Shown in pieces: positions 2,067-59,815 of a stretch of 64,000 nucleotides of DNA. Under the pieces are notes generated by a model. It made no database searches and was not told the origin of the DNA. It worked only from the letters and a program-made list of their open reading frames with translations. Position 1 is the stretch's first letter; every line of letters begins with the position of its first letter. The translations under genes were made by a program, and so were the position numbers. The stretch is from Candidatus Magasanikiibacteriota bacterium (lineage in GTDB: Bacteria; Patescibacteriota; Patescibacteriia; Magasanikbacterales; GWA2-37-8): the NCBI GenBank assembly GCA_023246655.1, contig JAHFHX010000004.1, forward strand, positions 2,762 through 66,761. Reading direction: 5' to 3'.

Positions 2067-2131
2067 TTTCGGCATCCAAATTAGTATCTTAGAATTTTTG
2101 GTAGTTGGCGACGCTCGTGAAAAGCCTCGCC

Positions 2132-2713
2132 TCACAGCGAGGCAGGCGTGAGTTGCAGAGGCGGCGAGAACGGCCGGCGCGGGTCGGGGCAGGATGCGCC
2201 CTCCACCGTGTCGACCATCGCCGGGTCGGGGATGAGCCACCGCATCCAGCCGGTCACTCCTCCCATGGTGACGGGTGCGTCCCCGCTGGGGGACGAGGCC
2301 AGTGGGCGCTTGGGGGCGATGAGGAGGCGACACTTGCCCTCCGCATCGAGCGGGAGAACCCCACGGATCCGGCCGTCCTTGTACAGCCGGACCTCCTTGA
2401 AGACCGGGTTGGGCGGCGGATCAAACCGCCAGTACCCCAAGATCTCCGTACCCTCCCGGACGAGGGCCTTCTCCCCCGCGGCCCTCATGTCGATCTCTTT
2501 CTTCTCCACCTCCTGCTTGGTGAAGGAAAGAAAAGCGACTTTGGGCGCGGCCCCTTCGACAGGGAAGCCAACGATCATCACCCCGAACCAGAAGCGGGGT
2601 GCCGCGTCGGAGGCAGGCGCCGGGATAGCGGGAGGGCGTGGCAGGGCCACGCTGCGCGGTGCAATACAGCCCGCCGCGAGCGTGGTGATAAAAAGCAAAT
2701 GACGAGCGTTCAT
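2132..2713 (-). CDS. GC-rich lipoprotein (signal peptide plus lipobox LAAGC); function unknown
   Basis: The N-terminus MNARHLLFITTLAAGC is a lipoprotein signal. An AAGGAG ribosome-binding site lies 7 nt upstream of the ATG. The region is about 65% GC. The gene is a paralog of the next gene upstream, sharing a GYWRFDPPP motif. Confidence 0.55.
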   Translation of the reverse strand: MNARHLLFITTLAAGCIAPRSVALPRPPAIPAPASDAAPRFWFGVMIVGFPVEGAAPKVAFLSFTKQEVEKKEIDMRAAGEKALVREGTEILGYWRFDPPPNPVFKEVRLYKDGRIRGVLPLDAEGKCRLLIAPKRPLASSPSGDAPVTMGGVTGWMRWLIPDPAMVDTVEGASCPDPRRPFSPPLQLTPASL

Positions 2714-2858
2714 GGGGTGCTCCTTTGCGCTCTATTAAATGGCGAGCGCCAACCACCGAAAATTCTAAATTGTATTTTCAAAGAACAGAATAATTTACTT
2801 AGTGCCTCTGGCAGGCGGCGGTGCTGTGGGAACGCCACGGACAGAGCGATTGATACTA

Positions 2859-3325
2859 CTACTGCGTCGGGCAGTCAAGCCCGACAAGGCCCTCGACCGT
2901 CGGGAGAAAAACGGCGCGCATCAAGCGGCCGCTCAATCCGCCGGCCGCAATGCGCAGCGGCTTCCCGTGCCGAAGGGCGGTTTGTAGCAGAAACAGCACC
3001 TGGCAGCGGTGCCTTTTGCCCCACACGGCCAGGTAGATGTTTCCGTCCGGGTAAACCCGGAACTCCTGCTCCAGAAGCGGGGGTGGCGGAAAGAACCGCC
3101 AGTACCCATCCTTGCCCTCGCCGGCCTGGACGACGACGACTTTCTCCCCCCGGATGGGAGCCGTTCCCCCGTTGCGCCGAAGATGAAGGCGAGGCGAGGC
3201 GCCTGCCCAGGCGCCACGTCTTCCACCACCATCAGCCCATACCAGCGGCTGGGCTCCATCTTGATGGTGGGGGCGGTGGCGCAACCGCCCAAGATGAGCG
3301 CCAACAAAACGAGGATCCTGCTCAT
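2859..3325 (-). pseudogene. frameshifted tandem paralog of the lipoprotein at 2132..2713
   Basis: The same upstream GCGCAAAGGAGG ribosome-binding site precedes an N-terminus MSRILVLLALILGGC (lipobox). Homology to the paralog then continues in a second reading frame (GYWRFFPPPP...TVEGLVGLDCP). The frame switch falls near a GGCGAG GGCGAG hexamer repeat at about 3175-3195. Confidence 0.45.
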
Positions 3326-3453
3326 ATCGGCCTCCTTTGCGCTCACCACGAGCGCCGGCCACCAGAGGTTCTAAATAGTGGGGTTGTATTGTATAATTGA
3401 CTTGACCCCTACATTACCACACTACCTTACCCTTGAATTTTGTCAAATTTTCT

Positions 3454-3951: not shown

Positions 3952-4022
3952 GTATAAAACAAGGAAAGGAGTGGAAGTTGCCGAGAATGGCTTTCTAAAA
4001 TTTTCAAAGATATTAAAAAATA

Positions 4023-4418
4023 TTATCTTTGGAGGCTGCCTGATTTAAAAAGTAATAATTTCATTTCTTCTCTAATCTCAGAGTAATTTTTTTCCAAAAT
4101 GGGTTTTTTGGCAACAAAAAGCAGGTAGTAGCCGTTTTGGAGCTGGTGGTCCTTAATAAGGAGACGAACAACTTCTCGCATTTGGCGCCTGACGCGGTTG
4201 CGTTTGACAGCGCTTTTAGAAATTTTGACCCCAACTGTAAAAACTAATTTGAGCTGTTTTTTAAACTTTTCTGGATCCTCTTTTTTGGGAAAATAATTTT
4301 GAATTGTGCCTAATCTCAGCCATTTTAAATCACAAAATGAGCCATTAACCCAGCGGCCATATTTTATGATGAGGTTAAAATCACGAACTTTGGCGAGGCG
4401 ATTAATTGACTGTAACAT
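4023..4418 (-). CDS. rnpA: RNase P protein component
   Basis: A basic roughly 130-aa protein lies directly downstream of rpmH in the classic rpmH-rnpA arrangement and contains an RNR-like segment (KSAVKRNRVRRQMREV). The start is ambiguous between 4418 and 4433. Confidence 0.7.
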   Translation of the reverse strand: MLQSINRLAKVRDFNLIIKYGRWVNGSFCDLKWLRLGTIQNYFPKKEDPEKFKKQLKLVFTVGVKISKSAVKRNRVRRQMREVVRLLIKDHQLQNGYYLLFVAKKPILEKNYSEIREEMKLLLFKSGSLQR

Positions 4419-4542
4419 ATGCGAAAAATGCATAACGTGGAACGTTTTGACAGGTTGCGCACTCCACGTTATGCGAGATATCTTACACTAAACAAAAACC
4501 ACCCGCAAATTAACGAGTGGTATCTGTAAATCTAAATAACAA

Positions 4543-4719
4543 CTAACTCTTAAATCTCCGCAACTTGCCGGTAATCTCATCGGACACGGTGAGTTTTTTT
4601 CGCTGCTTGGCACGACGACGACTAAGAACCTCGCGGCCTTGTTTGGTCTTCATGCGTGCTCTGAAACCATGAGTTTTGGCACGTTTACGTTTTTTTGGTT
4701 GGTAAGTGCGCTTAGGCAT
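4543..4719 (-). CDS. rpmH: 50S ribosomal protein L34, with a short C-terminal extension
   Basis: The sequence [45 protein letters not shown] is a canonical L34. About 13 extra C-terminal residues follow. Confidence 0.85.
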
Positions 4720-4774
4720 AATGAAGTTATTGGTTATTGATAAATAATAAAGTATTGGAGAAAAAAAGTCAAGC

Positions 4775-4806
4775 TTTTCCACACCTTGTCCACACCTTGT
4801 CCACGT
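4775..4806 (+). promoter_or_regulatory. cluster of three DnaA-box-like 9-mers (TTTTCCACA, TTGTCCACA, TTGTCCACG) in the rpmH-dnaA intergenic region
   Basis: These are direct matches to the TTATCCACA consensus with one mismatch each. They sit in the expected position upstream of dnaA. Confidence 0.5.
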
Positions 4807-4894
4807 GTTCTTACTCATTGTTCATTTGTCTCTCACACGAACTGTGTTACAATGGATCAGGTTTACTTTCTTCTAACTGGGCTCATTTTAGGAT

Positions 4895-6277
4895 ATGACA
4901 AACGGCGAAATTTGGCAGGCGGTTCTGGGAGAATTAGAGCTTACTATTTCCAAAGCTAATTTTGTGACTTGGTTTAAAAACACCGGCGTTGTTTCATACC
5001 AAGACGGACATGTTTTATTGTGTGTCCCCAATACCTTCACTAAGGCCTGGCTTGAAAAAAAATACCACCACCTTATTATTAAATCACTCGAGAGAATCAC
5101 CGGAAAACCGCTGCGTCGCTTGGAATATAAAATTGATAATATTAAAAACGTTGTCGAACAACCCCCAGCCCTGGCAACAACCTCTTCTCCTACACGTTCG
5201 CTAGAAACTTCATTTGTTTCTCGCCCCCCAACTAACGATCATGGTGGTTTTTCTCTTAACCCTAAGTATACCTTTGAGAGTTTTGTAGTTGGTAAAAGTA
5301 GTGAGCTGGCTTATGCAGCGGCCCAAGCGGTGGTAACGCGCCCTGGGGTAGCTTATAATCCGCTCTTTATTTATGGTGGAGTTGGCCTTGGTAAAACGCA
5401 TCTTATTCAAGCGGTGGGAAATGAACTCCGCCGCAACAACCCACAACTGACTGTTGTGTATGTGAGTGCCGAAAAGTTTTCTAATGATTTCATTACTTCC
5501 ATTAAAGAAAAGACGACCAAGGATTTCCTCGCTCGCTATCGTACTACCGATCTGCTCCTGATTGATGATATCCAGTTCATCGCAGGCAAAGAAGGAACAC
5601 AAGAGTCGTTTTTTCACACTTTCAACGAATTGCACCAACAAAATAAACAAGTAATCTTAACTTCAGATCGTCCACCAAAAGCTATTCCGGCCTTGGAAGA
5701 TCGACTGAAATCTCGTTTTGAGTGGGGCATGATTGCTGATGTTTCGACACCTGATTTTGAAACTCGAGTAGCCATTCTAGAGCGCAAGTGTTTGGAAAAA
5801 AACTTTCCTTTACCTATTAAAACCCTTCAATTTATCGCCAGCAATTTTCAAAGCAATATTCGTGAGTTGGAGGGGGCGCTCAATAAAATTATCGTATTTC
5901 ACCAGCTCAAAAATTGTGTTCCCACCCTAGAAACAATTAAAGAGGTTTTGATTTCCGCCAGCACCGTTTCAGCTCGTCAGTCACTTACTCCGCGTCAGCT
6001 TCTAGAGGTGGTTGGTCAATTTTATTCTTTAACAACTGATGATATTTTGAGTAAAAATAGAGAAAAAAAAATCTCTCTCCCGCGACAAATTATTATGTTT
6101 TTAATGCGCGAGGAGCTTAAAATGTCCTACCCCGCGATTGGTGATGAGTTGGGGGGTCGGGATCACACCACAGCCATGCATGCTCATGAAAAAATTGTTC
6201 GTGAACTTAACCAGGATCTTAAACTAAAACAAGATGTTGATTTATTAAAACAACGCTTGTATGTTAACAATGTATAA
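4895..6277 (+). CDS. dnaA: chromosomal replication initiator protein DnaA
   Basis: The N-terminus reads MTNGEIWQAVLGELE. The protein has a Walker A motif (GGVGLGKTHL), a sensor and box VII, and the C-terminal DNA-binding helix (LSLPRQIIMFLMREE...IGDELGGRDHTT). Confidence 0.95.
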   Translation: MTNGEIWQAVLGELELTISKANFVTWFKNTGVVSYQDGHVLLCVPNTFTKAWLEKKYHHLIIKSLERITGKPLRRLEYKIDNIKNVVEQPPALATTSSPTRSLETSFVSRPPTNDHGGFSLNPKYTFESFVVGKSSELAYAAAQAVVTRPGVAYNPLFIYGGVGLGKTHLIQAVGNELRRNNPQLTVVYVSAEKFSNDFITSIKEKTTKDFLARYRTTDLLLIDDIQFIAGKEGTQESFFHTFNELHQQNKQVILTSDRPPKAIPALEDRLKSRFEWGMIADVSTPDFETRVAILERKCLEKNFPLPIKTLQFIASNFQSNIRELEGALNKIIVFHQLKNCVPTLETIKEVLISASTVSARQSLTPRQLLEVVGQFYSLTTDDILSKNREKKISLPRQIIMFLMREELKMSYPAIGDELGGRDHTTAMHAHEKIVRELNQDLKLKQDVDLLKQRLYVNNV

Positions 6278-6539: not shown

Positions 6540-7664
6540 ATGAACTTTACGTGCACCAAAGAAAACGCTGTGCGCGCCCTTGCCCTCATGAGTGGGGTAA
6601 CTGGAAAAAGTGTTAACCTACCCATTTTGAGTAATGTGCTTATTCGAGCTGATGAACAGAAGGTCGATTTTATTGCTACCAACCTTGAGGTAGCCCTCAC
6701 AGTAACGATTAGAGCTAAGATTGAGGCGCCGGGGGCCTTTACTGTTCCCGCCAGAACGCTCGTAGAGTGTGTTGGTTTGGCGCCAACCGAAAAAATTGTT
6801 TTTGTAGTTCATGATAACGAGTTGGTGGTTACAGCCGGCAAAGCCGTTACCAAAATTAAAGGAACTGGTGCCGAAGATTTTCCTGTTATTCCGACCTTGG
6901 AAACCGGTTCCGGATTTGTGCTCGAGGCCGCCGCGCTTCGAGAAGGGCTTAATCAGGTTTTACCCGCTGTTGCTAAAAGTGACATTCGACCAGAGCTATC
7001 GGGGGTACTTTTAGAGTTAGATGGAGAAAAGCACTTGGCGACCTTAGCTGCCACCGATAGCTATCGGCTGGCTGAGAGAAAATTTTCGCTACAGCAGGGC
7101 AGCACCCATATACGAGTGGTCGTGCCCGGAAGAACTGCCCAAGAGATCGAACATGTGCTTTCTCCTATTTCTGATGGCACCGAGGAAAACGTACGAGTTT
7201 TGGTGGGTGATAATCAGCTAGCCTTAACTTTTCAGAACATCCAACTCGTTTCGCGTTTAGTGAGTGGAGAATATCCTGACTATACTCAAATTATTCCTAC
7301 TGCTTTTACTACCACTGTTGAAATTTCTACTGATGCACTTGTTAAAGAGCTTAAGGCGGCTGGTTTATTTACGACAAGTGGAGTTAACGCGGCGACACTT
7401 ACTGTTGAGCCAGAGTCCGGTGCGTTAAAAATTTTTTCAGCATCACTACAAACTGGTGAATATGCCTCTGAGCTCCCCGTTAAAATTACTGGTGTGCAAA
7501 CTACCACTGTATTAAATTATCGATATGTTCTTGAGGGGCTAGCACGGATGGGTGCACAGACAGTAGTAATGAAATTAATTAATAGTGACAGCCCCTGTAT
7601 ATTTACACCGGCCGGAGAAAATAAAGAAGCATTTATATATATCGTGATGCCAATTCGTCAATAA
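6540..7664 (+). CDS. dnaN: DNA polymerase III beta sliding clamp
   Basis: The protein is 374 aa, lies immediately after dnaA, and shows the three-domain clamp pattern. Its N-terminus MNFTCTKENAVRAL is typical. Confidence 0.9.
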   Translation: MNFTCTKENAVRALALMSGVTGKSVNLPILSNVLIRADEQKVDFIATNLEVALTVTIRAKIEAPGAFTVPARTLVECVGLAPTEKIVFVVHDNELVVTAGKAVTKIKGTGAEDFPVIPTLETGSGFVLEAAALREGLNQVLPAVAKSDIRPELSGVLLELDGEKHLATLAATDSYRLAERKFSLQQGSTHIRVVVPGRTAQEIEHVLSPISDGTEENVRVLVGDNQLALTFQNIQLVSRLVSGEYPDYTQIIPTAFTTTVEISTDALVKELKAAGLFTTSGVNAATLTVEPESGALKIFSASLQTGEYASELPVKITGVQTTTVLNYRYVLEGLARMGAQTVVMKLINSDSPCIFTPAGENKEAFIYIVMPIRQ

Positions 7665-17854: not shown

Positions 17855-19285
17855 TTAAGTAATTGAGTCTGTTGTTACATAATATTGATGTGAGGATATG
17901 ACGATGGCTGCCAGTATCCAGAATAACATCGCGAGATCATTTTTAAAATAGGGCACATCGATGAGGCCGTGCAGTATGATGATAGTAAGAGCTGTAATGA
18001 GACTGGCACTGAGAAGCTTGTCGGAGTGTTGATATATTTTATAACAAATAACAAATAACAAATAACAAATAACAACGAACGAGCACATTCCGACGAGACC
18101 GATTTCTGTCCAAAAGTTGAGGAAGATGTTGTGTGGGTAGATGAGGCGTTCCATTTTTTTAACATCATAGTGTGGTTTTTGAATTTTGCGAAAGAATTGG
18201 CGAATGCCGGTGCCAAAGAGGAAGTTTTTGGGTGATTGTGTTAAGTAATTCCACGAATAGGACCAGAGAGTTAAACGATTGGTGAGTGATTGAGATTTTT
18301 GTTGCGGGAAGTAGGAAGTAGGAAGTAGGAAGTAGGCGGCGATGAAAGCGATAGTTATGAGAGTCGCGATAAGCGCGATTTTTTTGTGACCAATGAGATA
18401 GGTAAAGAGAACTGTTCCGAGCACGAGGGCGGTGAAGGTGCCGAGGGATTTGGTAAGGAGGATGACGAGTGTGGAAATGAGAGATAAGGAGATAAGGAGA
18501 TAAGGAGATATTGTTTTGGGTGGAGAGGTGTGATTGTTTTTTCGGTAGTGCAAAATTAAAAATAAAATGAGAGGAACAATCGGCCCGAGATATAATCCAA
18601 CTGCGTTGGGAGAGAGGAAAAATGAGGTGATACGGTGGGTTTGGAGGGCAATCCAGTCCACATTGCCAATGTGCCAGCCGGTAAAGCGTTGGAGGATGCC
18701 GAAGATACTAATGCTGAGGGTGGAGAGGGCGAGGAACCAGATGAGGTTGGTTGGTGTTAGGGTGGTAGGTTGTAGGGCGGTAGCGCAGTAGGCTAGCATT
18801 CCCCGCTGGGGCGGGGTAGGGGTGGGTGAGGACGCCGGCGTGGCCGTTGGCGGAACCGCGAAGTGCCCCCCCCGCCCAAGCGGGGATTTGTCGTCGTCGA
18901 CTCGACCAACGAGCATCACAAATACCAGCATCGGTTCCAAAAAGTAGGCCCGCCATTGGCCAAGTGAGTAATACCACATGTCGGAAACGAAGATGCCGGC
19001 GATTGAAGCAAGAAAGAACAAAGAACAAAGAACAAAGAACAACTTGTTAATTGTTAATTGTTCTTTTATGTGTGACCAGTCCGCGCGGGCATGCTTGACG
19101 AGCCAGACTAAAAATAAAACTCCGAACATGAGTTCGAGCAACGTTGATGGGAGGGGGCCGACTTTGAATCGAATGAGGTATGTGGGGAGACCAATAATAA
19201 ACAGGCCAATGGCGAGGCGGAAATTTTTCCAGGCAAGGAGAGTAAAAGCAAGGCCGTAGAGAGTGAGGAGCAATAATGGTAACAC
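17855..19285 (-). CDS. O-antigen ligase / Wzy_C-family polytopic membrane protein, containing four microsatellite tracts and one GC-hairpin insertion
   Basis: The protein has about 11 TM helices and the Wzy_C/WaaL signature IYPHNIFLNFWTEIGLVG. Several repetitive peptide stretches (ICYLLFVICY, YFLLPTSYF, LLISLSLIS, LFFVLCSLFFLAS) are encoded by the heptamer and octamer repeats. Confidence 0.75.
   Translation of the reverse strand: MLPLLLLTLYGLAFTLLAWKNFRLAIGLFIIGLPTYLIRFKVGPLPSTLLELMFGVLFLVWLVKHARADWSHIKEQLTINKLFFVLCSLFFLASIAGIFVSDMWYYSLGQWRAYFLEPMLVFVMLVGRVDDDKSPLGRGGHFAVPPTATPASSPTPTPPQRGMLAYCATALQPTTLTPTNLIWFLALSTLSISIFGILQRFTGWHIGNVDWIALQTHRITSFFLSPNAVGLYLGPIVPLILFLILHYRKNNHTSPPKTISPYLLISLSLISTLVILLTKSLGTFTALVLGTVLFTYLIGHKKIALIATLITIAFIAAYFLLPTSYFPQQKSQSLTNRLTLWSYSWNYLTQSPKNFLFGTGIRQFFRKIQKPHYDVKKMERLIYPHNIFLNFWTEIGLVGMCSFVVICYLLFVICYKIYQHSDKLLSASLITALTIIILHGLIDVPYFKNDLAMLFWILAAIVISSHQYYVTTDSIT
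18043..18075. repeat. (AACAAAT)x4.7 microsatellite inside the CDS
   Basis: Four perfect heptamers plus a partial copy. Confidence 0.95.
18308..18335. repeat. (GAAGTAG)x4 microsatellite inside the CDS
   Basis: Four perfect heptamers. Confidence 0.95.
18481..18510. repeat. (GAGATAAG)x3.75 microsatellite inside the CDS
   Basis: Three perfect octamers plus 6 nt. Confidence 0.95.
18795..18900. repeat. GC-rich hairpin element (family B) read in-frame inside the O-antigen ligase gene
   Basis: The DNA CCCCGCTGGGGCGGGG...CCCCCCCGCCCAAGCGGGG encodes HFAVPPTATPASSPTPTPPQRG, in an otherwise AT-rich gene. Confidence 0.6.
19012..19062. repeat. (CAAAGAA)x3-4 followed by (TTGTTAA)x2.5, inside the CDS
   Basis: Adjacent perfect heptamer runs. 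Confidence 0.9.
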
Positions 19286-21002: not shown

Positions 21003-21038
21003 AAAAAACCATCCCGACTGAGTCCGGATGGTTTTTTG
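21003..21038. terminator. bidirectional terminator CCATCCCGACTGAGTCCGGATGG between convergent genes
   Basis: The same hairpin family as at 2034 and 34582, flanked by A-run and T-run. Confidence 0.65.
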
Positions 21039-21058
21039 TTATAAATAATTACGCTTTG

Positions 21059-25184: not shown

Positions 25185-26207
25185 TTAGAGATTAATTATT
25201 TCACCATATGTTTTTTGGTACCGTACGCAAAACGCTTCTTTTGTAAACGCATGTTCCTGTGTTCCATACGTCTCAATAGCATAACTCGCCGCGACGGAAC
25301 CGATTTGGGCGCAGGTTTTGAGAGGGAGGTTGTTTTCAAAACCCACCAGAAAGCCTGCGCGGAAAGCGTCGCCGGCGCCGGTGGGGTCGTCCACGGATTG
25401 GGGTGGGCAGGGGGCGACGTTGATTTCCTCGCCGTCTTGCGTAGTAATGATGGAACCTTTTTCACCAAGGGTCGTGATGAGAATGTTGGTTTCTTTTAAA
25501 ATATCCGCAGCGCTCCAACTGGTACGGTCTTGGAGGAGTTTCATTTCGTAGTCATTGCCAATAACAAAATGGCTTTTGCTTATCATACTCCGGAGTTCGA
25601 TGTCGGTGAAAGCAGTTATTTGTTGACCCGGGTCGAACATGGCCGGGATGCCGCGTTCATGGCATTCATGGAGATGCTTCATCATGACGGTTTTGTCGGT
25701 GGGGGAGATGATGGCGAGGTTTACTTTTTTGTCATCCCGAGTGAGGTTCGCACCGACGAGGGATCCCTGTCCGTCGATTGGTGATTGAGCCAGAGATTCC
25801 TCCTTCGTCGTCGGAATGACAGTTGGGAGGTGAGGCGTTTCTTCGAGCGGCCCATTGTAAAAGGCGGTTACCTGGTTGTCATCCATGTCGGTGGTGATGT
25901 AGGCGGAGGCGGAGAGTTTGGTTTTGTCTTGATAGATGTGGTCAGTTGCGATGTCGAATCTTTTAAAGTGATCGAGGTAGTCTTTCGCGTCTTTTCCAAC
26001 AGCAGAAACAATCATGGGGTTAGCGCCCAACATTTTTATCGTAAAGGCAATGTTGCCGGCGGTGCCGCCCCAACTGCGTTCTAATTTATCCACCACAAAA
26101 CAGACGTTAAGAATATGAATCTGTTCTGGCATGATGTGATTCTTAAAGCTGTCCGGAAAATTCATGATGTAATCGTAGGCGAGGGAGCCGGAGATGAGGA
26201 TGGACAT
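25185..26207 (-). CDS. PfkB-family carbohydrate/nucleoside kinase carrying an in-frame family-A repeat insertion
   Basis: The PfkB signature DPTGAGDAFRAGFL is present. The extra segment TVIPTTKEESLAQSPIDGQGSLVGANLTRDDKK is encoded by the repeat. Confidence 0.75.
   Translation of the reverse strand: MSILISGSLAYDYIMNFPDSFKNHIMPEQIHILNVCFVVDKLERSWGGTAGNIAFTIKMLGANPMIVSAVGKDAKDYLDHFKRFDIATDHIYQDKTKLSASAYITTDMDDNQVTAFYNGPLEETPHLPTVIPTTKEESLAQSPIDGQGSLVGANLTRDDKKVNLAIISPTDKTVMMKHLHECHERGIPAMFDPGQQITAFTDIELRSMISKSHFVIGNDYEMKLLQDRTSWSAADILKETNILITTLGEKGSIITTQDGEEINVAPCPPQSVDDPTGAGDAFRAGFLVGFENNLPLKTCAQIGSVAASYAIETYGTQEHAFTKEAFCVRYQKTYGEIINL
25731..25822. repeat. family-A nested-palindrome element (GTCATCCCGAG...GGAATGACAG)
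   Basis: It shares both termini and the inner GGGATCCCTGTC / GCCAGAGATTCC inverted repeat with the copies at 37842, 43470/43810, 54131 and 54502. Confidence 0.85.
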
Positions 26208-31352: not shown

Positions 31353-31777
31353 TGTTCTCCTTTGTTGCCGGCTTGGTTGTGCCGGTCCGTGGTACTTGCC
31401 GGTTCTGCCCCGGCAACCCTCGTTTCACGTACGAGTGTGATTAGCTAATTTCACTAAAGTACCTTTTGAAAAATAAAAAATCCCGTTTGTACGGGATATG
31501 ACCTCGGAAATGCGAAACTCTACCTAGAGTTTGCTACCCGAGGTCGAGAAGATGATGTGAAAATTGTACGAACGCTTGTTTCATATGTATTAACGTAGTA
31601 CTACAGTAACACAGAGGGGGAATGGTGTCAAGAGAAAGGTGTGGATAAATGCCTCAATATCTAATTTCTAATATCTAACAAAATGTCCAAACTATAATTT
31701 CCAAACATTAATCATAATTGGGTATTGATTATTGGGAATTTTATTAGGAATTAGATATTGGGTTAATTAGGAATTTT

Positions 31778-32074
31778 TTAGGTTAGTTTTTTGGCTATTT
31801 TTTTCAGAGCAGTCCGATATCCTCCTTCCCCATGTTCCAGCCACCAGGCAATGCGGGTAACGGTAGTGGTGGACACGCCCGTTTTTTTGGCAACGGCGCG
31901 ATAGGATTCGCCGTGGGCCAGGAGTTGAGCAATTTCCCAGCGCGTCCCCAGTTCTTTAAGCTCATCTAGGCTACAGAGGTCACGTAAAAATTTAAGTAAA
32001 TCGTCCTCATTTTTGAATGACAACAAAGCCCGGGCGAGACGTTTGAGAGCAAGGGTTTTCCAGTTTGATGACAT
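31778..32074 (-). CDS. TrpR-like (YerC/YecD family) DNA-binding protein
   Basis: The sequence GTRWEIAQLLAHGESYRAVAKKTGVSTTTVTRIA is an HTH. Confidence 0.6.
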   Translation of the reverse strand: MSSNWKTLALKRLARALLSFKNEDDLLKFLRDLCSLDELKELGTRWEIAQLLAHGESYRAVAKKTGVSTTTVTRIAWWLEHGEGGYRTALKKIAKKLT

Positions 32075-32868: not shown

Positions 32869-33528
32869 ATGAGCACTCTCACTCCGCGTCTCCGGGCGCA
32901 GGTCGAGTTGGCCATCCTCGCCGGTATCCTCAAGCCGGTTGATAAGGCCAAGCCTCACTTTGGCGAAGGCGTCGTGGCCGTGATGTGCCCTGACGGCGAT
33001 CAGGCGGGGAAGAAGCAATTTCTCGCTCAGCTCGTCACGGCGCAGCATGGGCAGGAGCGGGTCCACGACGTGGGCAAGTTCCACGGCGGCGCACTCGTGT
33101 TGTCGCCTACCTCGCCCTTGAGCAGCATGGCACCGTTCCTCGCTACGGCGCTTGCGATCCTCGCGCCGGACCGGGCAGCGCAGTGGGCCATCAAGCTCGC
33201 GCAGCCGCTTCTCGGTTTCGCGGGGCGAGCCATCCGGCTCGATCTGCTGCTCTTGTCCTTCCTCGCCATCGCGATCGACATGAAGAAGATTCGGACCGTG
33301 GTCCTCTACGTGCATGCGCCCTGCGGCGCAGCGCAGCATGCCGGCCTGGATTTCTTCGATGAGCTCAGGCACCTCGTGGCGGCCAAGCGTTTTCTCAAGC
33401 GCCGGCTTGGCCACCTTGGACTCAAGGTCCCCTGTTTCGTCCATGTCAACTTCGGTGGCGGACAGGAAGAGACCTACTTCGTGAAAACCCACGAAGTCGA
33501 AGCCTGGCTTGCGCAGGTCGCCCCTTAG
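32869..33528 (+). CDS. GC-rich hypothetical protein with a C-x-D...H-x-x-C-G motif pair
   Basis: A GGAGG ribosome-binding site lies 8 nt upstream of the ATG. The motifs are MCPDGD and HAPCGAAQ. The antisense ORF here was rejected. Confidence 0.45.
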   Translation: MSTLTPRLRAQVELAILAGILKPVDKAKPHFGEGVVAVMCPDGDQAGKKQFLAQLVTAQHGQERVHDVGKFHGGALVLSPTSPLSSMAPFLATALAILAPDRAAQWAIKLAQPLLGFAGRAIRLDLLLLSFLAIAIDMKKIRTVVLYVHAPCGAAQHAGLDFFDELRHLVAAKRFLKRRLGHLGLKVPCFVHVNFGGGQEETYFVKTHEVEAWLAQVAP

Positions 33529-33609
33529 CGCGGGGTGCAAGCTCCCGCCTCCGCTAGGCCCCCCGCCGGACCTAGCGTGAGGCACCCACACTGTGTTAAT
33601 GTATAAAAT

Positions 33610-34563
33610 ATGAGATTTGAAACATTTGGTCGCATGCTCGGTTTAGTTGCTACCCTTAGAGGCAGCGCTGAAGCCAAACCACCTAAACCTATGGAACATA
33701 TGCAAGCAGCAAATTTGGGTACTGAGCAACACCGTGAAGAGCAAGAGCGCGCTTTGTTTGCCAAGCTTGAGGAACGTAAAATGAATGCTCTGCGTAAGCA
33801 GGGCATGGGAAAATATGTGGAGAGTATTCCTCACCTTGAGCACGCGTTTCAGGAGGGTAAGACGGAAAGTTGTACCTGTATTGATGAACGGATTCCCGGC
33901 GGCAAGGTGCGGTTGGCCGGATCGGGGATACTTCTTTCCGGCGGAGCGGAGCAGGCGGCTGAATTACTTATTGCGGCTGGCGTTAAGGAGGTAACGAGCC
34001 ATGAGGGTTGTGGTGCCGCTGCCTTGGCTGCCAAGCAAGCCCACGCCCCCGATGCCAATGTCTATGGGCAGGAATTTGCTAAGCGCGTGGCTGCACTTAT
34101 GTCGCAAAAAATCGGCTACCCTGTTCGTCATCGCCATATTGCTGCCGCCGAGATGCGTCCGCCTAAAGATTTTTATAGTCATACAGAAATATCTAAATCT
34201 CCCGGGCACCACCCGGCACAAGCCGTGTATTATGATTTTACGGGTGGGTTTAATCCTACCAAGGTGCCAGAGTTGCCGCTTGGGTTTGTATCAAGTAGGC
34301 GATATGTTGGGCCAGAGACTGCTACCCACGATGCTCAATTGGCTGTTAAAATTGCCTTGGGGGCACATGGTTTAGGAAAAGATTATTTTCAAAATGGTCG
34401 TCAGGTCCGCGTTATTATTGTGGCGCGTAGCGCACAGGAATTGCAGCAGGCAAAGGCCGTTGAACTAGCCCCGGTGATGCAGGAGTTTGGAGAGACAGTA
34501 GCGATAGATGGTTTTGTAGTACCGAGGAAATTATTACCGCCTGCCGAGAATGCACTTAATTAG
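33610..34563 (+). CDS. hypothetical protein with CIDER...HEGCGAA motifs (possible distant beta-carbonic-anhydrase-like metal site)
   Basis: The protein is 317 aa. It resembles the upstream gene only in the C-x-D...H-x-x-C-G motif pair, so it may be a distant paralog. A terminator follows it. Confidence 0.5.
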   Translation: MRFETFGRMLGLVATLRGSAEAKPPKPMEHMQAANLGTEQHREEQERALFAKLEERKMNALRKQGMGKYVESIPHLEHAFQEGKTESCTCIDERIPGGKVRLAGSGILLSGGAEQAAELLIAAGVKEVTSHEGCGAAALAAKQAHAPDANVYGQEFAKRVAALMSQKIGYPVRHRHIAAAEMRPPKDFYSHTEISKSPGHHPAQAVYYDFTGGFNPTKVPELPLGFVSSRRYVGPETATHDAQLAVKIALGAHGLGKDYFQNGRQVRVIIVARSAQELQQAKAVELAPVMQEFGETVAIDGFVVPRKLLPPAENALN

Positions 34564-34581
34564 AAACGATTTTTAAAATAA

Positions 34582-34612
34582 AACATCCCGACTGAGTCGG
34601 GATGTTTTTATT
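34582..34612 (+). terminator. terminator hairpin ACATCCCGACTGAGTCGGGATGT followed by a T-run
   Basis: Third copy of the CATCCCGACTGAGTCGGGATG hairpin. Confidence 0.7.
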
Positions 34613-34839
34613 CTAGAAGATGCAAGTATTTTGTATGCTCTAGATGCAGGGTTTCATTGCGAGGAAACCCGACTCTTGGCCGGCGATAGTGTTATCGCCT
34701 GTTTCTTTTCAGCCGTCGTTTGGCCTGGCGACGGATATATTCCCGCGTGGCGGGACTATGGGAGGTGCCGAGATTCTCGGGAAGTACGGGCGGAATGGGT
34801 ACCGCCGTCGATTCCGAGCTCTCAGACTCGCGGTGGCGC

Positions 34840-35094
34840 CTAGGGCGCCACGTCGCTACCACCCGCGGGGAGTGGGCAGTAGGACTCGTTGCACGCCGGC
34901 TTGTGGGCCGGCGCGGCGGGCGCCGTCGGACGGTAGCCGGACGTGTCGATCACGTCGGCTCCGCCGGCCGGCAGGGGCGACCAGGGTCCGTGCGCCACGA
35001 AGGCGTGGACCATGATGGTCACCACGATCGCCACCAGGAGCGCGAACAGCGTCCCGGTGGAGATTTCCCGCCTTCTTCTCTTCTGAATGGCCAT
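34840..35094 (-). CDS. small GC-rich membrane-anchored protein
   Basis: A GGAGGAGG ribosome-binding site precedes the ATG. One TM helix (LFALLVAIVVTIMVHAFV) is followed by a Pro/Ala-rich tail. Confidence 0.45.
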   Translation of the reverse strand: MAIQKRRRREISTGTLFALLVAIVVTIMVHAFVAHGPWSPLPAGGADVIDTSGYRPTAPAAPAHKPACNESYCPLPAGGSDVAP

Positions 35095-37841: not shown

Positions 37842-37990
37842 ATACCGTTTTGTCATCCCGAGCAAGCCTTCCGCCAAAGGCGGACACAGCGCGAGGCCTG
37901 CCCGCCTCTGGCGGGAGGGATCTCTCTGTCCGTCGTTGGTTGATTGAGACAGAGATTCCTCACCCCTGCGACGGGGATTCGGAATGACAA
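37842..37990. repeat. family-A element, long intergenic variant (149 bp)
   Basis: It starts GTCATCCCGAGC, contains GGGATCTCTCTGTCCGTC...GAGACAGAGATTCCTC...CGACGGGGATTCGGAATGACAAG, and has an extra internal hairpin. Confidence 0.85.
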
Positions 37991-43456: not shown

Positions 43457-43804
43457 TTATTTTAGATTTGTCATCCCGAGCGAGCCTCGCGGCGACGAGG
43501 GATCCCTGTCCGTTATGTCCCAATACAAATCTTTCCATTTTGGGTTCATACTTTGAATTAATTTAATTTTTTTCTCTCGTCGCCAGGCTTTTATTTCTTT
43601 CTCACGATAGATGGCCTGTTTAATACCATTGTAATGTTCATAATAAACAGGTTTTTTGGTTTTATATTTTTTACTGAAACCACCACCTACCTCATCTTTG
43701 TGTTGTTCGACGCGTTCAATTAAATCATTGGTTACACCAACGTAGATCACATAACTAATACTCGCCATAATGTACGTGTAGAAATTGTAGTGTAATCGCG
43801 GCAT
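43457..43804 (-). CDS. GIY-YIG nuclease-domain protein (115 aa) nested in a family-A repeat
   Basis: The N-terminus YVIYVGVTNDLIERVEQH...YYEHY is the GIY-YIG fold. The last 15 codons (DRDPSSPRGSLGMTN) are encoded by the left arm of the repeat. Confidence 0.8.
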   Translation of the reverse strand: MPRLHYNFYTYIMASISYVIYVGVTNDLIERVEQHKDEVGGGFSKKYKTKKPVYYEHYNGIKQAIYREKEIKAWRREKKIKLIQSMNPKWKDLYWDITDRDPSSPRGSLGMTNLK

Positions 43805-43919
43805 AGCGGTTGATTGGACAGAGATTCCTCAGTCGCGCGAGTTTCTTCGGAATGACAGTTGGGTGGTCTTGATTGAGACAGAGATCCCTCACCCCTGCGA
43901 CGGGGATTCGGGATGACAA
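43457..43919 (-). mobile_element. candidate mobile cassette: family-A left arm, GIY-YIG gene, and two tandem family-A right arms
   Basis: The left arm GTCATCCCGAGCGAGCCTCGCGGCGACGAGGGATCCCTGTCCGTT lies at 43470-43514. Two right arms (TTGATTGGACAGAGATTCCTC...GGAATGACAG at 43810-43858 and TTGATTGAGACAGAGATCCCTC...GGGATGACAA at 43869-43919) flank the gene. The cassette sits between the ABC ATPase and permease genes. Confidence 0.6.
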
Positions 43920-47227: not shown

Positions 47228-47400
47228 GAGTTAGGATGGTAGGACAAGAGTCGTATTCCCCGCTTGAGCGGGGTGGTCGCCTCAAGGCGACCGAGGTGTG
47301 TGAGGCCGGTGAGCGGGCGATTCGTCAATGGATGCGATTTTATTGCCCCCGGCGGCTCACACCCCCCTACCCCCCCCCTCACAGGGGGGAGTTGAATATC
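47228..47400. repeat. family-B GC-rich hairpin cluster (CCCCGCTTGAGCGGGG, GCTCACACCCCCC, CCCCCCTCACAGGGGGG)
   Basis: The same motifs recur at 48517-48550, 48947-48990 and 59764-59815. Confidence 0.8.
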
Positions 47401-53389: not shown

Positions 53390-53779
53390 TTAATTTATGG
53401 ACAGAATAAGAAAGGCGCTGGTCGCGAGCGCGATGCCAATGTAGGTTGTGATGGATATTGATTCCCGTAACAATAAGAGCCCGATAATATTAGCAAACAC
53501 AATCGATACTATTGCGAAGAGTGTTATGGTTTTGCCGAGTTGAATAGTTGTAAAGACGTAGAGCTGACCAAGCGTGGCTAAAGAGTGTAATAATACATAT
53601 ATAATAAACCAACCATGCAAAAAACTATTTATCGTAAAGCCATATTTGTGCATGAAGTGGCGACCGAGCACGTCACTGGCAGTGAAAACAAGCTGGGTTA
53701 AAATGAGGATTATGAGGGGCGATGTCATAGCATTGCTTAAGCTAGATAATTTTGTTAAGATGAACGCAAAGTTGTACAT
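53390..53779 (-). CDS. small four-helix membrane protein (SMR/EamA-like, ArnE/ArnF-like)
   Basis: The protein is 129 aa with four TM helices and lies adjacent to a glycosyltransferase. Confidence 0.45.
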   Translation of the reverse strand: MYNFAFILTKLSSLSNAMTSPLIILILTQLVFTASDVLGRHFMHKYGFTINSFLHGWFIIYVLLHSLATLGQLYVFTTIQLGKTITLFAIVSIVFANIIGLLLLRESISITTYIGIALATSAFLILSIN

Positions 53780-53807
53780 ATCATATCAAGAATTTGATAG
53801 GTTGACT

Positions 53808-55139
53808 ATGATGGAAAATGTCCTAAAAATTCTCATCCTCCACGACTATTTTCTCTACAAAGGCGGCGGGGAGCGGTTGGTGATTAGTCTTGCCAAAAAT
53901 TTGGGGGCGGATGTGGCGACGGCGTTTATTGCCAAGGATGCTTTTGATCCGCGTGAGCACGGGATTAGGACGATTGAATTATATAAAGAGAAGGCGTGGT
54001 CGCGTGTGCCCGGGTTTCGATATTTGCAGGTGCAGTCGTCGTTTTTGTTTAAGACGGGGTTTGTAAAGAATTATGATGTAGTGATTTATAGTGGCGATTG
54101 TTTGACGGCAGCACTTCGAACTGGCGTATTGTCATCCCGAGCGAGGCTCGCGCCGACGAGGGATCTCTGTCCGTCGGTGAGTGAGCCAGAGATTCTTCGC
54201 TCTGCTCAGAATGACAGTAAAAAATCAGAAAGACGGCCAGTGAACATCGCTTACATGCACACGCCGCCTCGGCATTTGTATGATTTGTATGACGAGAGAT
54301 TGCGCTCATATCCCTGGTGGAAGAAAATTATTTTTGTGCCGTTTGTCTTGTTTAACCGGTGGAGATTTTTAGCCTTGGCACGAATGATGGATAGGATTGT
54401 GACGAATTCGAAAAATACTCAAGCGCGGATAAAAAAGTATCTGGGACTCGATTCGATAGTAGTGTATCCGCCGTGTGACACTCTTCCGTTCAAAAATCTC
54501 CGTCATTCCGAGCGAGGCCTCGCGGCCGACGAGGAATCTCTGTCCGTTTCGTCAACGAGTGAGACAGAGATTCCTCCTGCGGTCGGGATGACAAGTGTTG
54601 GCGATTATTTTTTCTCCTGGGCGCGATTGTATGATGTGAAACGGGTTCACCTCATCGCGGAGGCATTTGCCAAGATGCCAGACAAAAAAGTAGTCATTGC
54701 ATCGCAGGGCCCAGAGTTTGAGCGGATAAAAAAAATTGTTGAGGGGCACAGCAATATTACGCTTCTAGGTTGGATTGATGACCAACAATTGCTGGAGTAT
54801 TTGGGCAAATCTTTAGCCACGATTTACATTCCCATGGCTGAGGATTTTGGGATGACGGCGGTGGAATCCATGCAAGCGGGGAAGCCGGTGATTGGGGTGG
54901 CGGAGGGAGGACTTTTAGAAATCATTGAAGATAATAAAAATGGGTTGATGTTGAAACCGGATTTTACGGTTGACGATTTACGATTGAAGATTTTAGAAAT
55001 GACACCAGAGCGGGTGCGGGTGATGGAAGCAGCGTGTTATGAAACGGCGAAGAAGTTTAGTGAAGCGGCATTTGTGGAGGGGATGAGGGAGGTGATTGAG
55101 AAATACCAAATACCAAATACCAAATACCAAAGCTGTTGA
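53808..55139 (+). CDS. GT4-family glycosyltransferase with two in-frame family-A repeat insertions
   Basis: The C-terminal GT4 EX7E region (GMTAVESMQAGKPVIGVAEGGLLEII) is present. The inserted segments read VLSSRARLAPTRDLCPSVSEPEILRSAQNDS and RHSERGLAADEESLSVSSTSETEIPPAVGMTS. Confidence 0.75.
   Translation: MMENVLKILILHDYFLYKGGGERLVISLAKNLGADVATAFIAKDAFDPREHGIRTIELYKEKAWSRVPGFRYLQVQSSFLFKTGFVKNYDVVIYSGDCLTAALRTGVLSSRARLAPTRDLCPSVSEPEILRSAQNDSKKSERRPVNIAYMHTPPRHLYDLYDERLRSYPWWKKIIFVPFVLFNRWRFLALARMMDRIVTNSKNTQARIKKYLGLDSIVVYPPCDTLPFKNLRHSERGLAADEESLSVSSTSETEIPPAVGMTSVGDYFFSWARLYDVKRVHLIAEAFAKMPDKKVVIASQGPEFERIKKIVEGHSNITLLGWIDDQQLLEYLGKSLATIYIPMAEDFGMTAVESMQAGKPVIGVAEGGLLEIIEDNKNGLMLKPDFTVDDLRLKILEMTPERVRVMEAACYETAKKFSEAAFVEGMREVIEKYQIPNTKYQSC
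54131..54217. repeat. family-A element (87 bp) translated in-frame within the glycosyltransferase gene
   Basis: GTCATCCCGAGCGAGGCTCGCGCCGACGAGGGATCTCTGTCCGTC...GCCAGAGATTCTTCGCTCTGCTCAGAATGACAG. Confidence 0.85.
54502..54594. repeat. family-A element (93 bp) translated in-frame within the same gene, in a different frame relative to the repeat
   Basis: GTCATTCCGAGCGAGGCCTCGCGGCCGACGAGGAATCTCTGTCCGTT...GAGACAGAGATTCCTCCTGCGGTCGGGATGACAAG. Confidence 0.85.
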
Positions 55140-59763: not shown

Positions 59764-59815
59764 CCCCGCTTGAGCGGGGTGGCCCGCGTCGCAGCGGGAC
59801 CGGGGGTGTGTGAGC
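59764..59815. repeat. family-B element (CCCCGCTTGAGCGGGG...GGGGGTGTGTGAGCG)
   Basis: The same two sub-motifs as at 47228-47400, in opposite orientation. Confidence 0.75.

Follow-up and report, generated by a model that had tools for sequence, protein, structure and literature searches.

Orthologous heptanucleotide tracts in a Wzy_C-type membrane ligase gene of a Magasanikbacteria genome, a candidate slippage-driven switch of a surface glycan

The stretch of DNA analysed here, hereafter the window, comprises 64,000 nucleotides from a metagenome-assembled genome (MAG) of a Candidatus Magasanikiibacteriota bacterium, within the Candidate Phyla Radiation (CPR, or Patescibacteria). It contains a gene for a putative membrane glycan ligase of the Wzy_C/WaaL type, and this gene carries five perfect tandem tracts, T1 to T5, with units of 7 or 8 nt. 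The tracts were called with Tandem Repeats Finder (TRF) and with a separate exact-repeat scan, both run over the 64-kb window, and all five sit in the intact open reading frame (ORF) of 476 amino acids, which starts with a GTG codon. The gene and its tracts are listed below, with helix positions taken from an AlphaFold (AF2) model and with the hot spot, B to E, at which each main tract lies.

17855..19285, minus strand: Wzy_C/WaaL-type membrane glycan ligase gene, intact (ON), 476 aa, from ORF and Pfam.
18041-18075, minus strand: T1, plus-strand unit ATAACAA, sense unit TTGTTAT, 5.0 copies, 35 nt, perfect, hot spot E; peptide VVICYLLFVICY (aa 404-415), within helix 387-420.
18307-18336, minus strand: T2, plus-strand unit GGAAGTA, sense unit CCTACTT, 4.3 copies, 30 nt, perfect, hot spot D; peptide AYFLLPTSYFP (aa 317-327), at the end of helix 301-320.
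18481-18510, minus strand: T3, an octamer, plus-strand unit GAGATAAG, sense unit TATCTCCT, 3.75 copies, 30 nt, perfect, hot spot C; peptide ISPYLLISLSL (aa 259-269), at the start of helix 261-278.
19013-19042, minus strand: T4, plus-strand unit AAAGAAC, sense unit TTGTTCT, 4.3 copies, 30 nt, perfect, hot spot B; peptide LFFVLCSLFF (aa 82-91), in helix 81-100.
19044-19062, minus strand: T5, plus-strand unit TTGTTAA, sense unit AACAATT, 2.7 copies, 19 nt, perfect, adjoining T4; peptide EQLTINK (aa 75-81), a polar pre-helix segment; short and the weakest of the five.

The predicted protein matches the Pfam family Wzy_C (PF04932) at residues 268-403 (E=5.4e-15, 55.9 bits against a cutoff of 31.7). 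About 1500 homologs were found, the nearest in Candidatus Magasanikbacteria, and PF04932 was present in 120 of 120 homologs among the matches listed. The closest homologs, from MAGs of Candidatus Magasanikbacteria and other Patescibacteria, are merely about 61-64% identical to the window protein. The AF2 model (predicted local distance difference test, pLDDT, 75.5; predicted template modelling score, pTM, 0.79) has about 12 long helices, and the hydropathy profile agrees with this polytopic membrane protein. The sole structure in the PDB matched by Foldseek at E<1e-3 was the O-antigen ligase WaaL (7TPG; probability 1.0, template modelling scores 0.55/0.64), which is like the window protein in its Wzy_C domain and fold but only 11% identical in sequence, and a PDB sequence search with the family profile gave no match. 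Residues R366, R380 and H385, located in the motifs QFFRKIQKP and ERLIYPHN, are invariant across the alignment of homologs and are candidates for the catalytic Arg/His residues of the extracytoplasmic loops. Linkage to uppS, for the undecaprenyl-PP carrier, is also conserved, at a distance of two to three genes. Judging from these sequence features, the product would be a WaaL/Wzy_C-type ligase that moves an undecaprenyl-linked glycan onto a surface acceptor. This acceptor is probably not lipid A-core, because CPR bacteria are not known to make lipopolysaccharide.

An initial annotation of the window had described a Wzy_C/WaaL-type membrane protein gene with several microsatellites of 7-8 nt, all five in frame and with units that are not multiples of three. 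The Pfam match, the AF2 model and the 7TPG fold confirm the gene assignment, TRF and the exact scan recovered the same tracts, and the ORF runs through each of them. The copy numbers first given (4.7, 4, 3.75, 3-4 and 2.5) were essentially right, if slightly low against the values listed above, and the repeat peptides, described as hydrophobic, are so in the transmembrane tracts T1-T4 and not in T5. The annotation had also predicted that gain or loss of one unit would frameshift the gene, and simulated slips at T1-T4 agree with this. As no unit length is divisible by three, every change of ±1 or ±2 units shifted the frame, and the protein was truncated or its C-terminus replaced. Most of these slips led to an early stop in the range aa 121-418. 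For ±1 unit the stops fell at aa 121 or 195 in T4, at aa 313 or 371 in T3 and at aa 336 or 376 in T2, and for +1 and -2 units in T1 they fell at aa 418 and 411. With -1 and +2 units in T1 the other frame was read to stops at aa 468 and 475, and the conserved C-terminus was replaced. Changes of ±3 units kept the frame and altered helix length by 7-8 residues.

The gene holds five of the six tracts of the window within 1.4 kb (binomial p=3e-8). Second-order Markov replicas of the gene contained 0.006 tracts each on average (at least one in 18 of the 3000), in contrast to the five observed. An independent assembly in ENA (L001) differs from the window by 2 single-nucleotide polymorphisms in 11.4 kb, and its tracts are identical.

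About 105 non-redundant orthologous loci with their flanks, from related CPR genomes, were compared, with perfect tandem repeats counted at 2.5 copies or more. In a smaller locus set, 15 perfect tracts of period 7 lay in the gene and 2 in the flanks, with 0-2 tracts for other periods. In the enlarged set the gene contained 27 perfect tracts in 126 kb and the flanks 7 in 421 kb, a density about 13-fold higher in the gene (binomial p=6e-12), and 3 of the 7 flank tracts abut the ends of the Wzy_C gene itself. Imperfect segments of lag 7 were enriched about 22-fold (20 in the 126 kb of gene against 3 in the 421 kb of flank), while every other lag from 4 to 12 gave at most 2 such segments. Non-triplet units outnumber 6-, 9- and 12-mers in the Wzy_C gene set, the reverse of what is usual for coding simple sequence repeats (SSRs). 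No heptamer tract was found in 85 other ORFs with multiple transmembrane segments (60.8 kb), and none in 71.5 kb of extended flanks from four close relatives.

As to the gene edges, three orthologs have further tracts, CGTGATA x3.9 in L005 (2926-2952), ATACATA x2.9 in L004 (2983-3002) and AGCAATGT x3.4 in L075 (2356-2382). They lie at the 5' or 3' edge of the same Wzy_C gene, which thus draws tracts beyond its transmembrane helices too.

Within the gene, tracts recur at aa 6-16, 75-94, 244-270, 305-327 and 404-415 of the window protein and in a variable loop. Each of T1-T4 lies at a site that also carries tracts in other species. Such orthologous tracts were found in at least 12 species besides that of the window, and the MAGs concerned stem from many unrelated studies. 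The proportion of tract-bearing loci falls with amino acid identity to the window, from 8 of 11 at 52% or more to 5 of 43 at 46-52%, 1 of 25 at 42-46% and none of 10 at lower identity. At the tract sites the majority of orthologs lack a repeat. In alignments the tracts are not insertions and stand in place of segments of equal length, and they are confined to poorly conserved helices.

The sites differ in their units. At site B the window and L121 (cluster-mate P0121, used in place of P0002 for DNA) have (GTTCTTT)4.3, L004 has (GTTTTTT)3.9 and L009 has (GTTTCTT)4.1, all in the same register and without indels, even where the tract edges move between species. In L003 this site is occupied by an 11-mer repeat and in L042 and L002 by degenerate sequence. 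T5 is present in L121 with one substitution. At site C the window has its octamer of 30 nt, in comparison with heptamers of 28-31 nt in L121, L003, L042 and L009, and at site D tracts also occur in L121, L062 and L064. Site E carries (TTGTTAT)5 in the window, (TTACTAT)4.9 in L042 and (CTATTGG)3.3 in L002, with no indels across the clade. An imperfect heptamer is found there in L062 and degenerate period-7 sequence in more distant relatives. The peptides encoded at site E differ by species (ICYLLFVICY, TIYYLLFTIYY, MYYWLLAIGW), and a Y-x6-Y pattern is conserved even in tract-free orthologs.

The window and L121 are 64% identical in amino acids, and over the whole gene 65% in nucleotides and 50% at third positions. 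Across site B the values are 94% and 88%, the 30-nt tract is identical, and the window shares the peptide QLTINKLFFVLCSLFF with P0002/L121. Because this identity is far above the gene-wide background, the tracts appear from the alignments to be old, orthologous and dynamically maintained. Recent horizontal transfer was considered for the identity at site B and is unlikely, as the block spans about 50 nt within flanks that are, by eye, roughly 70-75% identical.

The same substitution in every copy of an array within a species does not arise from independent point mutations, and the arrays have therefore been homogenised repeatedly. Orthologous tracts with perfect, species-specific units and with register and length kept present, on this sequence comparison, a case of concerted evolution, which would need recurrent slippage in replication, or misalignment, inside the tracts. 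Length-kept homogenisation can proceed by two routes, either cycles of +1 and -1 slips by way of a frameshifted OFF allele, or length-neutral templated correction by transient misalignment. A back-of-envelope estimate suggests that, if the OFF intermediates are deleterious, a perfect 30-nt tract would need slip rates of about 1e-4 per generation, as in phase variation. Otherwise there would have been spells in which OFF was tolerated or favoured, or the length-neutral route would have been taken, for which a similar estimate gives about 1e-7. By either route the tracts would be active in misalignment, with a raised rate of reversible frameshifts at four places in the gene.

The Wzy_C gene lies in a neighbourhood that is conserved across species and contains genes for AdoHcyase, NUDIX, a TrmB-type regulator, Wzy_C, an M50B-like peptidase, MgtC, uppS, ribonucleotide reductase and dnaN/dnaA. 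It is about 13 kb from the likely replication origin (oriC) and is transcribed head-on. Head-on orientation near oriC was rejected as a sufficient cause of the tracts, since the head-on neighbours, the ribonucleotide reductase gene and uppS, are tract-free. Likewise, hydrophobic T-rich coding was rejected as their cause, the 85 other multi-transmembrane ORFs being without a heptamer tract. An Rfam scan of the window found only a tRNA-Ala and nothing at the tracts. Further features of the window are the following.

4895-6277: dnaA.
6540-7664: dnaN.
55101-55131, plus strand: AAATACC x4.4, forming the last 13 codons (EKYQIPNTKYQSC and the stop) of the family 4 glycosyltransferase (GT4) gene 53574-55139.
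18798-18888, minus strand: GC-rich imperfect palindrome of about 90 nt, in frame in the Wzy_C gene (aa about 133-163), in a loop between helices.
25729-25831, 37846-37990, 43468-43919, 54125-54203 and 54557-54586: sites of a repeat family resembling miniature inverted-repeat transposable elements (MITEs).

The AAATACC tract is the sole perfect tract of the window outside the Wzy_C gene, and the ORF that it ends has a Glycos_transf_1 match (3.3e-23). The other tracts found thus lie at glycan-pathway genes as well, namely this one at the GT4 tail and one upstream of uppS in L012. The latter (6149-6196, AGTAAAC x6.9) is the longest heptamer tract found and the only clearly intergenic one. It is placed between a polyprenyl-synthase-like ORF, read by eye, and a uppS-like ORF, a position at which promoter or 5' untranslated region spacing could change with the number of units.

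The palindrome, which the initial annotation had reported as a GC-hairpin insert, was recovered at 18798-18888. Its GC content is 75%, that of the gene about 42%, and its DNA fold is -34.1 kcal/mol (z=-3.1). Its inverted termini are CCCCGCTGGGGCGGGG/CCCCGCTTGGGCGGGG, with related sites at 47258-47273 and 59764-59779, and the loop that it encodes is predicted to be disordered (pLDDT below 50 in the AF2 model). It is absent from most orthologs, some of which (P0003 and P0008 among them) have unrelated GC-rich inserts in the same loop, and L005 has a GC-rich insert at another loop. It resembles in-frame palindromic-element insertions such as the Rickettsia palindromic elements (RPEs).

The MITE-like family (TTGTCATCCCGAGCGAGG...GGGATC..., with the inverted partner ...GGAATGACAA) occurs in at least four places, and two of its parts are in frame within the GT4 ORF, where they add peptides such as SSRARLAPTRDLCPSVSEPEILRSAQND. 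Three terminator-like hairpins AAAAACCATCCCGACTGAGTCGGGATGGTTTTT, 81-95% identical, at 2032-2068, 21004-21040 and 34578-34614, look like a reused or mobile terminator module. The likely replication origin, at 3990-4900, is AT-rich (GC 0.39) and adjoins dnaA upstream, with the minimum of cumulative GC skew nearby. The 11-mer CTTGTCCACAC x2.8 at 4774-4804, just upstream of dnaA, is DnaA-box-like by eye. An AT-rich intergenic stretch at 31640-31810 has several imperfect repeats of 7, 12 and 14 nt and a 28-nt inverted repeat (31646-31673 / 31742-31769). Locally GC-rich stretches are found at 2105-3400 and 33000-35000 (0.55-0.61 against about 0.46 for the window), and the 431-aa ORF at 2105-3400 has no Pfam match.

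We regard the Wzy_C gene as a strong candidate, though an unproven one, for an on/off switch driven by slippage. Four of its transmembrane segments are written as perfect microsatellites of 30-35 nt, with 7- or 8-nt units at fixed sites, and according to the proposed mechanism slippage in replication, or misalignment, would homogenise the units in each species. Whichever of T1-T4 slipped by one or two units, the frame would shift and yield a truncated protein or a new C-terminus, and a reverse slip would restore the frame, so that four independent triggers may form a reversible ON/OFF mutational switch. The gene would then most likely be a contingency locus of low switching frequency that acts on a surface glycan and is held mainly in the ON state, the transmembrane helices setting the length of the tracts, and we put the probability of this reading at roughly one half. 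It would further require that the tracts do slip, that OFF cells are viable and that switching brings an adaptive benefit. In its favour are the perfection of the tracts, far above chance, their gene specificity, the dominance of non-triplet units, the recurrence over sites and species and the additional tracts at both edges of the gene in some species. The other tracts at glycan-pathway genes also argue for it, as do the heptanucleotide switches established in the surface-glycan genes neuO and pglE.

neuO, the K1 capsule O-acetyltransferase gene of the E. coli CUS-3 prophage, has coding AAGACTC heptanucleotide repeats of 3-53 units, with 65.6% of complete genomes OFF and with subpopulations of ±1 unit measured (PMC13001214). 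Full-length protein is made only at certain copy numbers, with every three units adding one peptide repeat of 7 aa (PMC13001214). As in the Wzy_C gene, the SSR lies within the ORF of a surface-glycan enzyme. However, neuO is an accessory phage cargo gene with one 5' tract whose length is free between strains, whereas the Wzy_C gene is a core gene with four or five tracts of 3-5 units in transmembrane helices, invariant in length and all ON. In Neisseria, a heptanucleotide repeat sets the ON/OFF state of pglE, a glycosyltransferase gene of pilin/protein O-glycosylation (PMC7157529). This too is a glycan-pathway gene, but it has a single tract, encodes a soluble glycosyltransferase and has documented switching in carriage isolates, whereas the window gene is a candidate switch only and bears its tracts in the membrane protein itself. 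PglL, the oligosaccharyltransferase of the pglE pathway, belongs to the Wzy_C family, as does the product of the window gene.

Long-unit SSRs are also known from H. influenzae, as TGAAAGA in the hmw1A/2A promoters, AACAACC in a TonB-dependent receptor gene and AATTTTG within hmw1A (PMC2651432). The candidate threshold used in the field is at least 3 units for SSRs of 7-8 nt, and no heptamer tract that reaches it was recorded in the 1.8 Mb of H. influenzae Rd (PMC2651432). T1-T4, with 3.75-5 units, are above this threshold. Like the Wzy_C tracts, some of the H. influenzae loci are intragenic and frameshifting, and they are proven or candidate mediators of phase variation. They differ in that each gene has a single tract, whose length ranges over strains from 1 to 38 units, frameshifted alleles included, and there is no report that their tract sites are conserved across species. 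Some bacterial lineages are unusually rich in direct tandem repeats of heptanucleotides. Cyanobacterial short tandemly repeated repetitive (STRR) sequences are of this kind, being intergenic and genome-wide. In Beggiatoaceae the heptamer TAACTGA is likewise repeated genome-wide and intergenically (PMC4679880). Such repeats have one unit at many intergenic sites, in contrast to the Wzy_C tracts, whose unit differs per site and which are almost only coding and in one gene.

Several observations weigh against a switch. All of the about 105 orthologs have intact ORFs (>90% of the match), including the 13 tract-bearing loci with about 30 tracts. None of these 13 is an OFF allele, although MAG consensus sequences hide minority OFF alleles. 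The sole near-identical pair, the window and L001, has identical tracts, and no other close pair among the 105 loci, sought for a comparison of tract lengths, involved a tract-bearing locus. Cluster members of the tract-bearing proteins (P0001-P0005) are all of the same length, with no length-variant or truncated member. An exact look-up of 10 simulated products of ±1 or ±3 units in a collection of 15 billion proteins returned 0 matches, a result of low power, as only two contigs carry the gene. Copy number is just 3-5, and at site B the window and L121 have the same number of units although synonymous divergence between them is close to saturation. As a core gene in conserved synteny, surrounded by housekeeping genes near oriC and outside any variable glycan island, the Wzy_C gene is unlike typical dispensable contingency genes, and several mid-gene tracts within transmembrane helices are atypical as well. 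A slip in the GT4 tract would alter the C-terminal tail only and switch nothing.

The P0060 cluster contains a gene split into parts of 99 aa and 374 aa on a single contig. It was examined as a possible OFF allele and rejected, since L118 and L119 differ by 7 substitutions without gaps and neither has a tract.

The initial annotation had gone further and read the gene as a likely multi-switch phase-variable locus. This reading is supported in part. Its slippage substrate, the frame effect and the evolutionary activity of the tracts stand, but neither length polymorphism nor an OFF allele was seen. The Wzy_C gene is best classed with SSR contingency loci, to which it corresponds in type of mechanism and in function, and because those two features were not seen it is not filed as a demonstrated phase-variable gene.

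The chief competitor to this reading, to be taken seriously although we consider it doubtful, is that the tracts are non-adaptive microsatellites. Misalignment would homogenise them in a length-neutral manner, through transient misalignment, quasi-repeat correction or rare +1/-1 cycles, in weakly constrained helices with a prior 7-residue periodicity, and no switching would occur. Read through its three frames, a unit of 7 nt yields a peptide repeat of 7 aa, or about two turns of a helix, and this would be structurally tolerated, while OFF slips would be rare deleterious mutations of negligible load. Much of the comparative evidence fits: all alleles are ON, lengths are invariant and copy numbers low, and the tracts replace segments of equal length only in poorly conserved helices. 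Tract-free orthologs already have degenerate period-7 DNA and Y-x6-Y at site E, tract boundaries shift between species without indels, and at site C of the window the unit is now 8 nt with the total still 30 nt. The housekeeping context of this core gene and the GT4-tail tract, unable to switch anything, are also as expected. Gene specificity, however, is left unexplained, since heptamer tracts are missing from the 85 multi-transmembrane ORFs, from the head-on ribonucleotide reductase and uppS genes and from intergenic DNA, which should be the most tolerant. The dominance of non-triplet units over 6-, 9- and 12-mers, which are free of frameshifts, is not explained either, and we know of no mutational process that favours 7-nt units in one gene.

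It appears improbable that the tracts are cis-acting DNA or RNA elements, such as binding sites for a protein specific to pyrimidine-rich sequence of 7-nt periodicity, or translation-pausing signals that aid co-translational membrane insertion. The conservation of sites with perfection at the nucleotide level, most of all the 94% identity of site B on its 65% background, would suit such elements, as would the position of the tracts at or near helix starts and the T-richness of all units on the sense strand, were it not that T-richness follows from hydrophobic codons. No motif is common to the units within the gene (TTGTTAT, CCTACTT, TATCTCCT, TTGTTCT, AACAATT) or between species at a given site, unlike the single genome-wide TAACTGA of Beggiatoaceae (PMC4679880), and Rfam had nothing at the tracts.

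Even less credit can be given to selection for a heptad peptide in the helices, with the DNA repeats as a by-product. The tracts do encode hydrophobic peptides of 7-aa periodicity, one of them shared by the window and P0002/L121, but their units are 100% identical in DNA, and selection on the protein would not hold third codon positions. A tract comparison across related genomes, proposed by the initial annotation together with the idea that repeats conserved in distant protein homologs would imply a structural role, bears on this directly. The same sites carry tracts in the other species noted above, with species-specific, homogenised units, which strongly supports the view that the tracts are active microsatellites particular to this gene. 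The sites are thus conserved, but the repeat sequences and peptides mostly differ, as at site E, and most orthologs have no repeat there, which argues against a purely structural protein repeat. Nucleotide perfection and the unit differences between species have already largely refuted this explanation. An artefact of assembly or sequencing in a MAG, or chance low-complexity sequence, can practically be dismissed, as two independent assemblies agree, homologous tracts occur in MAGs of many unrelated studies and the chance expectation is 0.006 per gene.

For the clade as a whole we tentatively suggest, at somewhat less than even odds, that Magasanikbacteria keep five or six orthologous heptamer sites over family-level divergence as a multi-trigger switch of a surface glycan, with positions and lengths frozen by helix geometry while the units turn over. 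This would be the first SSR phase-variation system in CPR/Patescibacteria, none having been found described in the searched literature, which also held no report of SSRs or slipped-strand mispairing in O-antigen-ligase (WaaL) genes. Independent of function, the gene offers an unusually clean natural case of coding microsatellites that evolve in concert while their length is strictly constrained. The pattern forces a choice between truly hypermutable slip rates and length-neutral templated conversion, and it prompts one to ask why units of 7 nt should be preferred, given that a 7-residue repeat makes about two helical turns.

CPR bacteria are ultra-small and mostly uncultured episymbionts, which attach to their hosts by surface structures that also determine susceptibility to phages. 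The searched literature yielded no description of the way in which heterogeneity of the surface arises in them. If the Wzy_C gene is indeed such a contingency locus, stochastic loss and regain of a surface glycan would become a concrete hypothesis for these bacteria.

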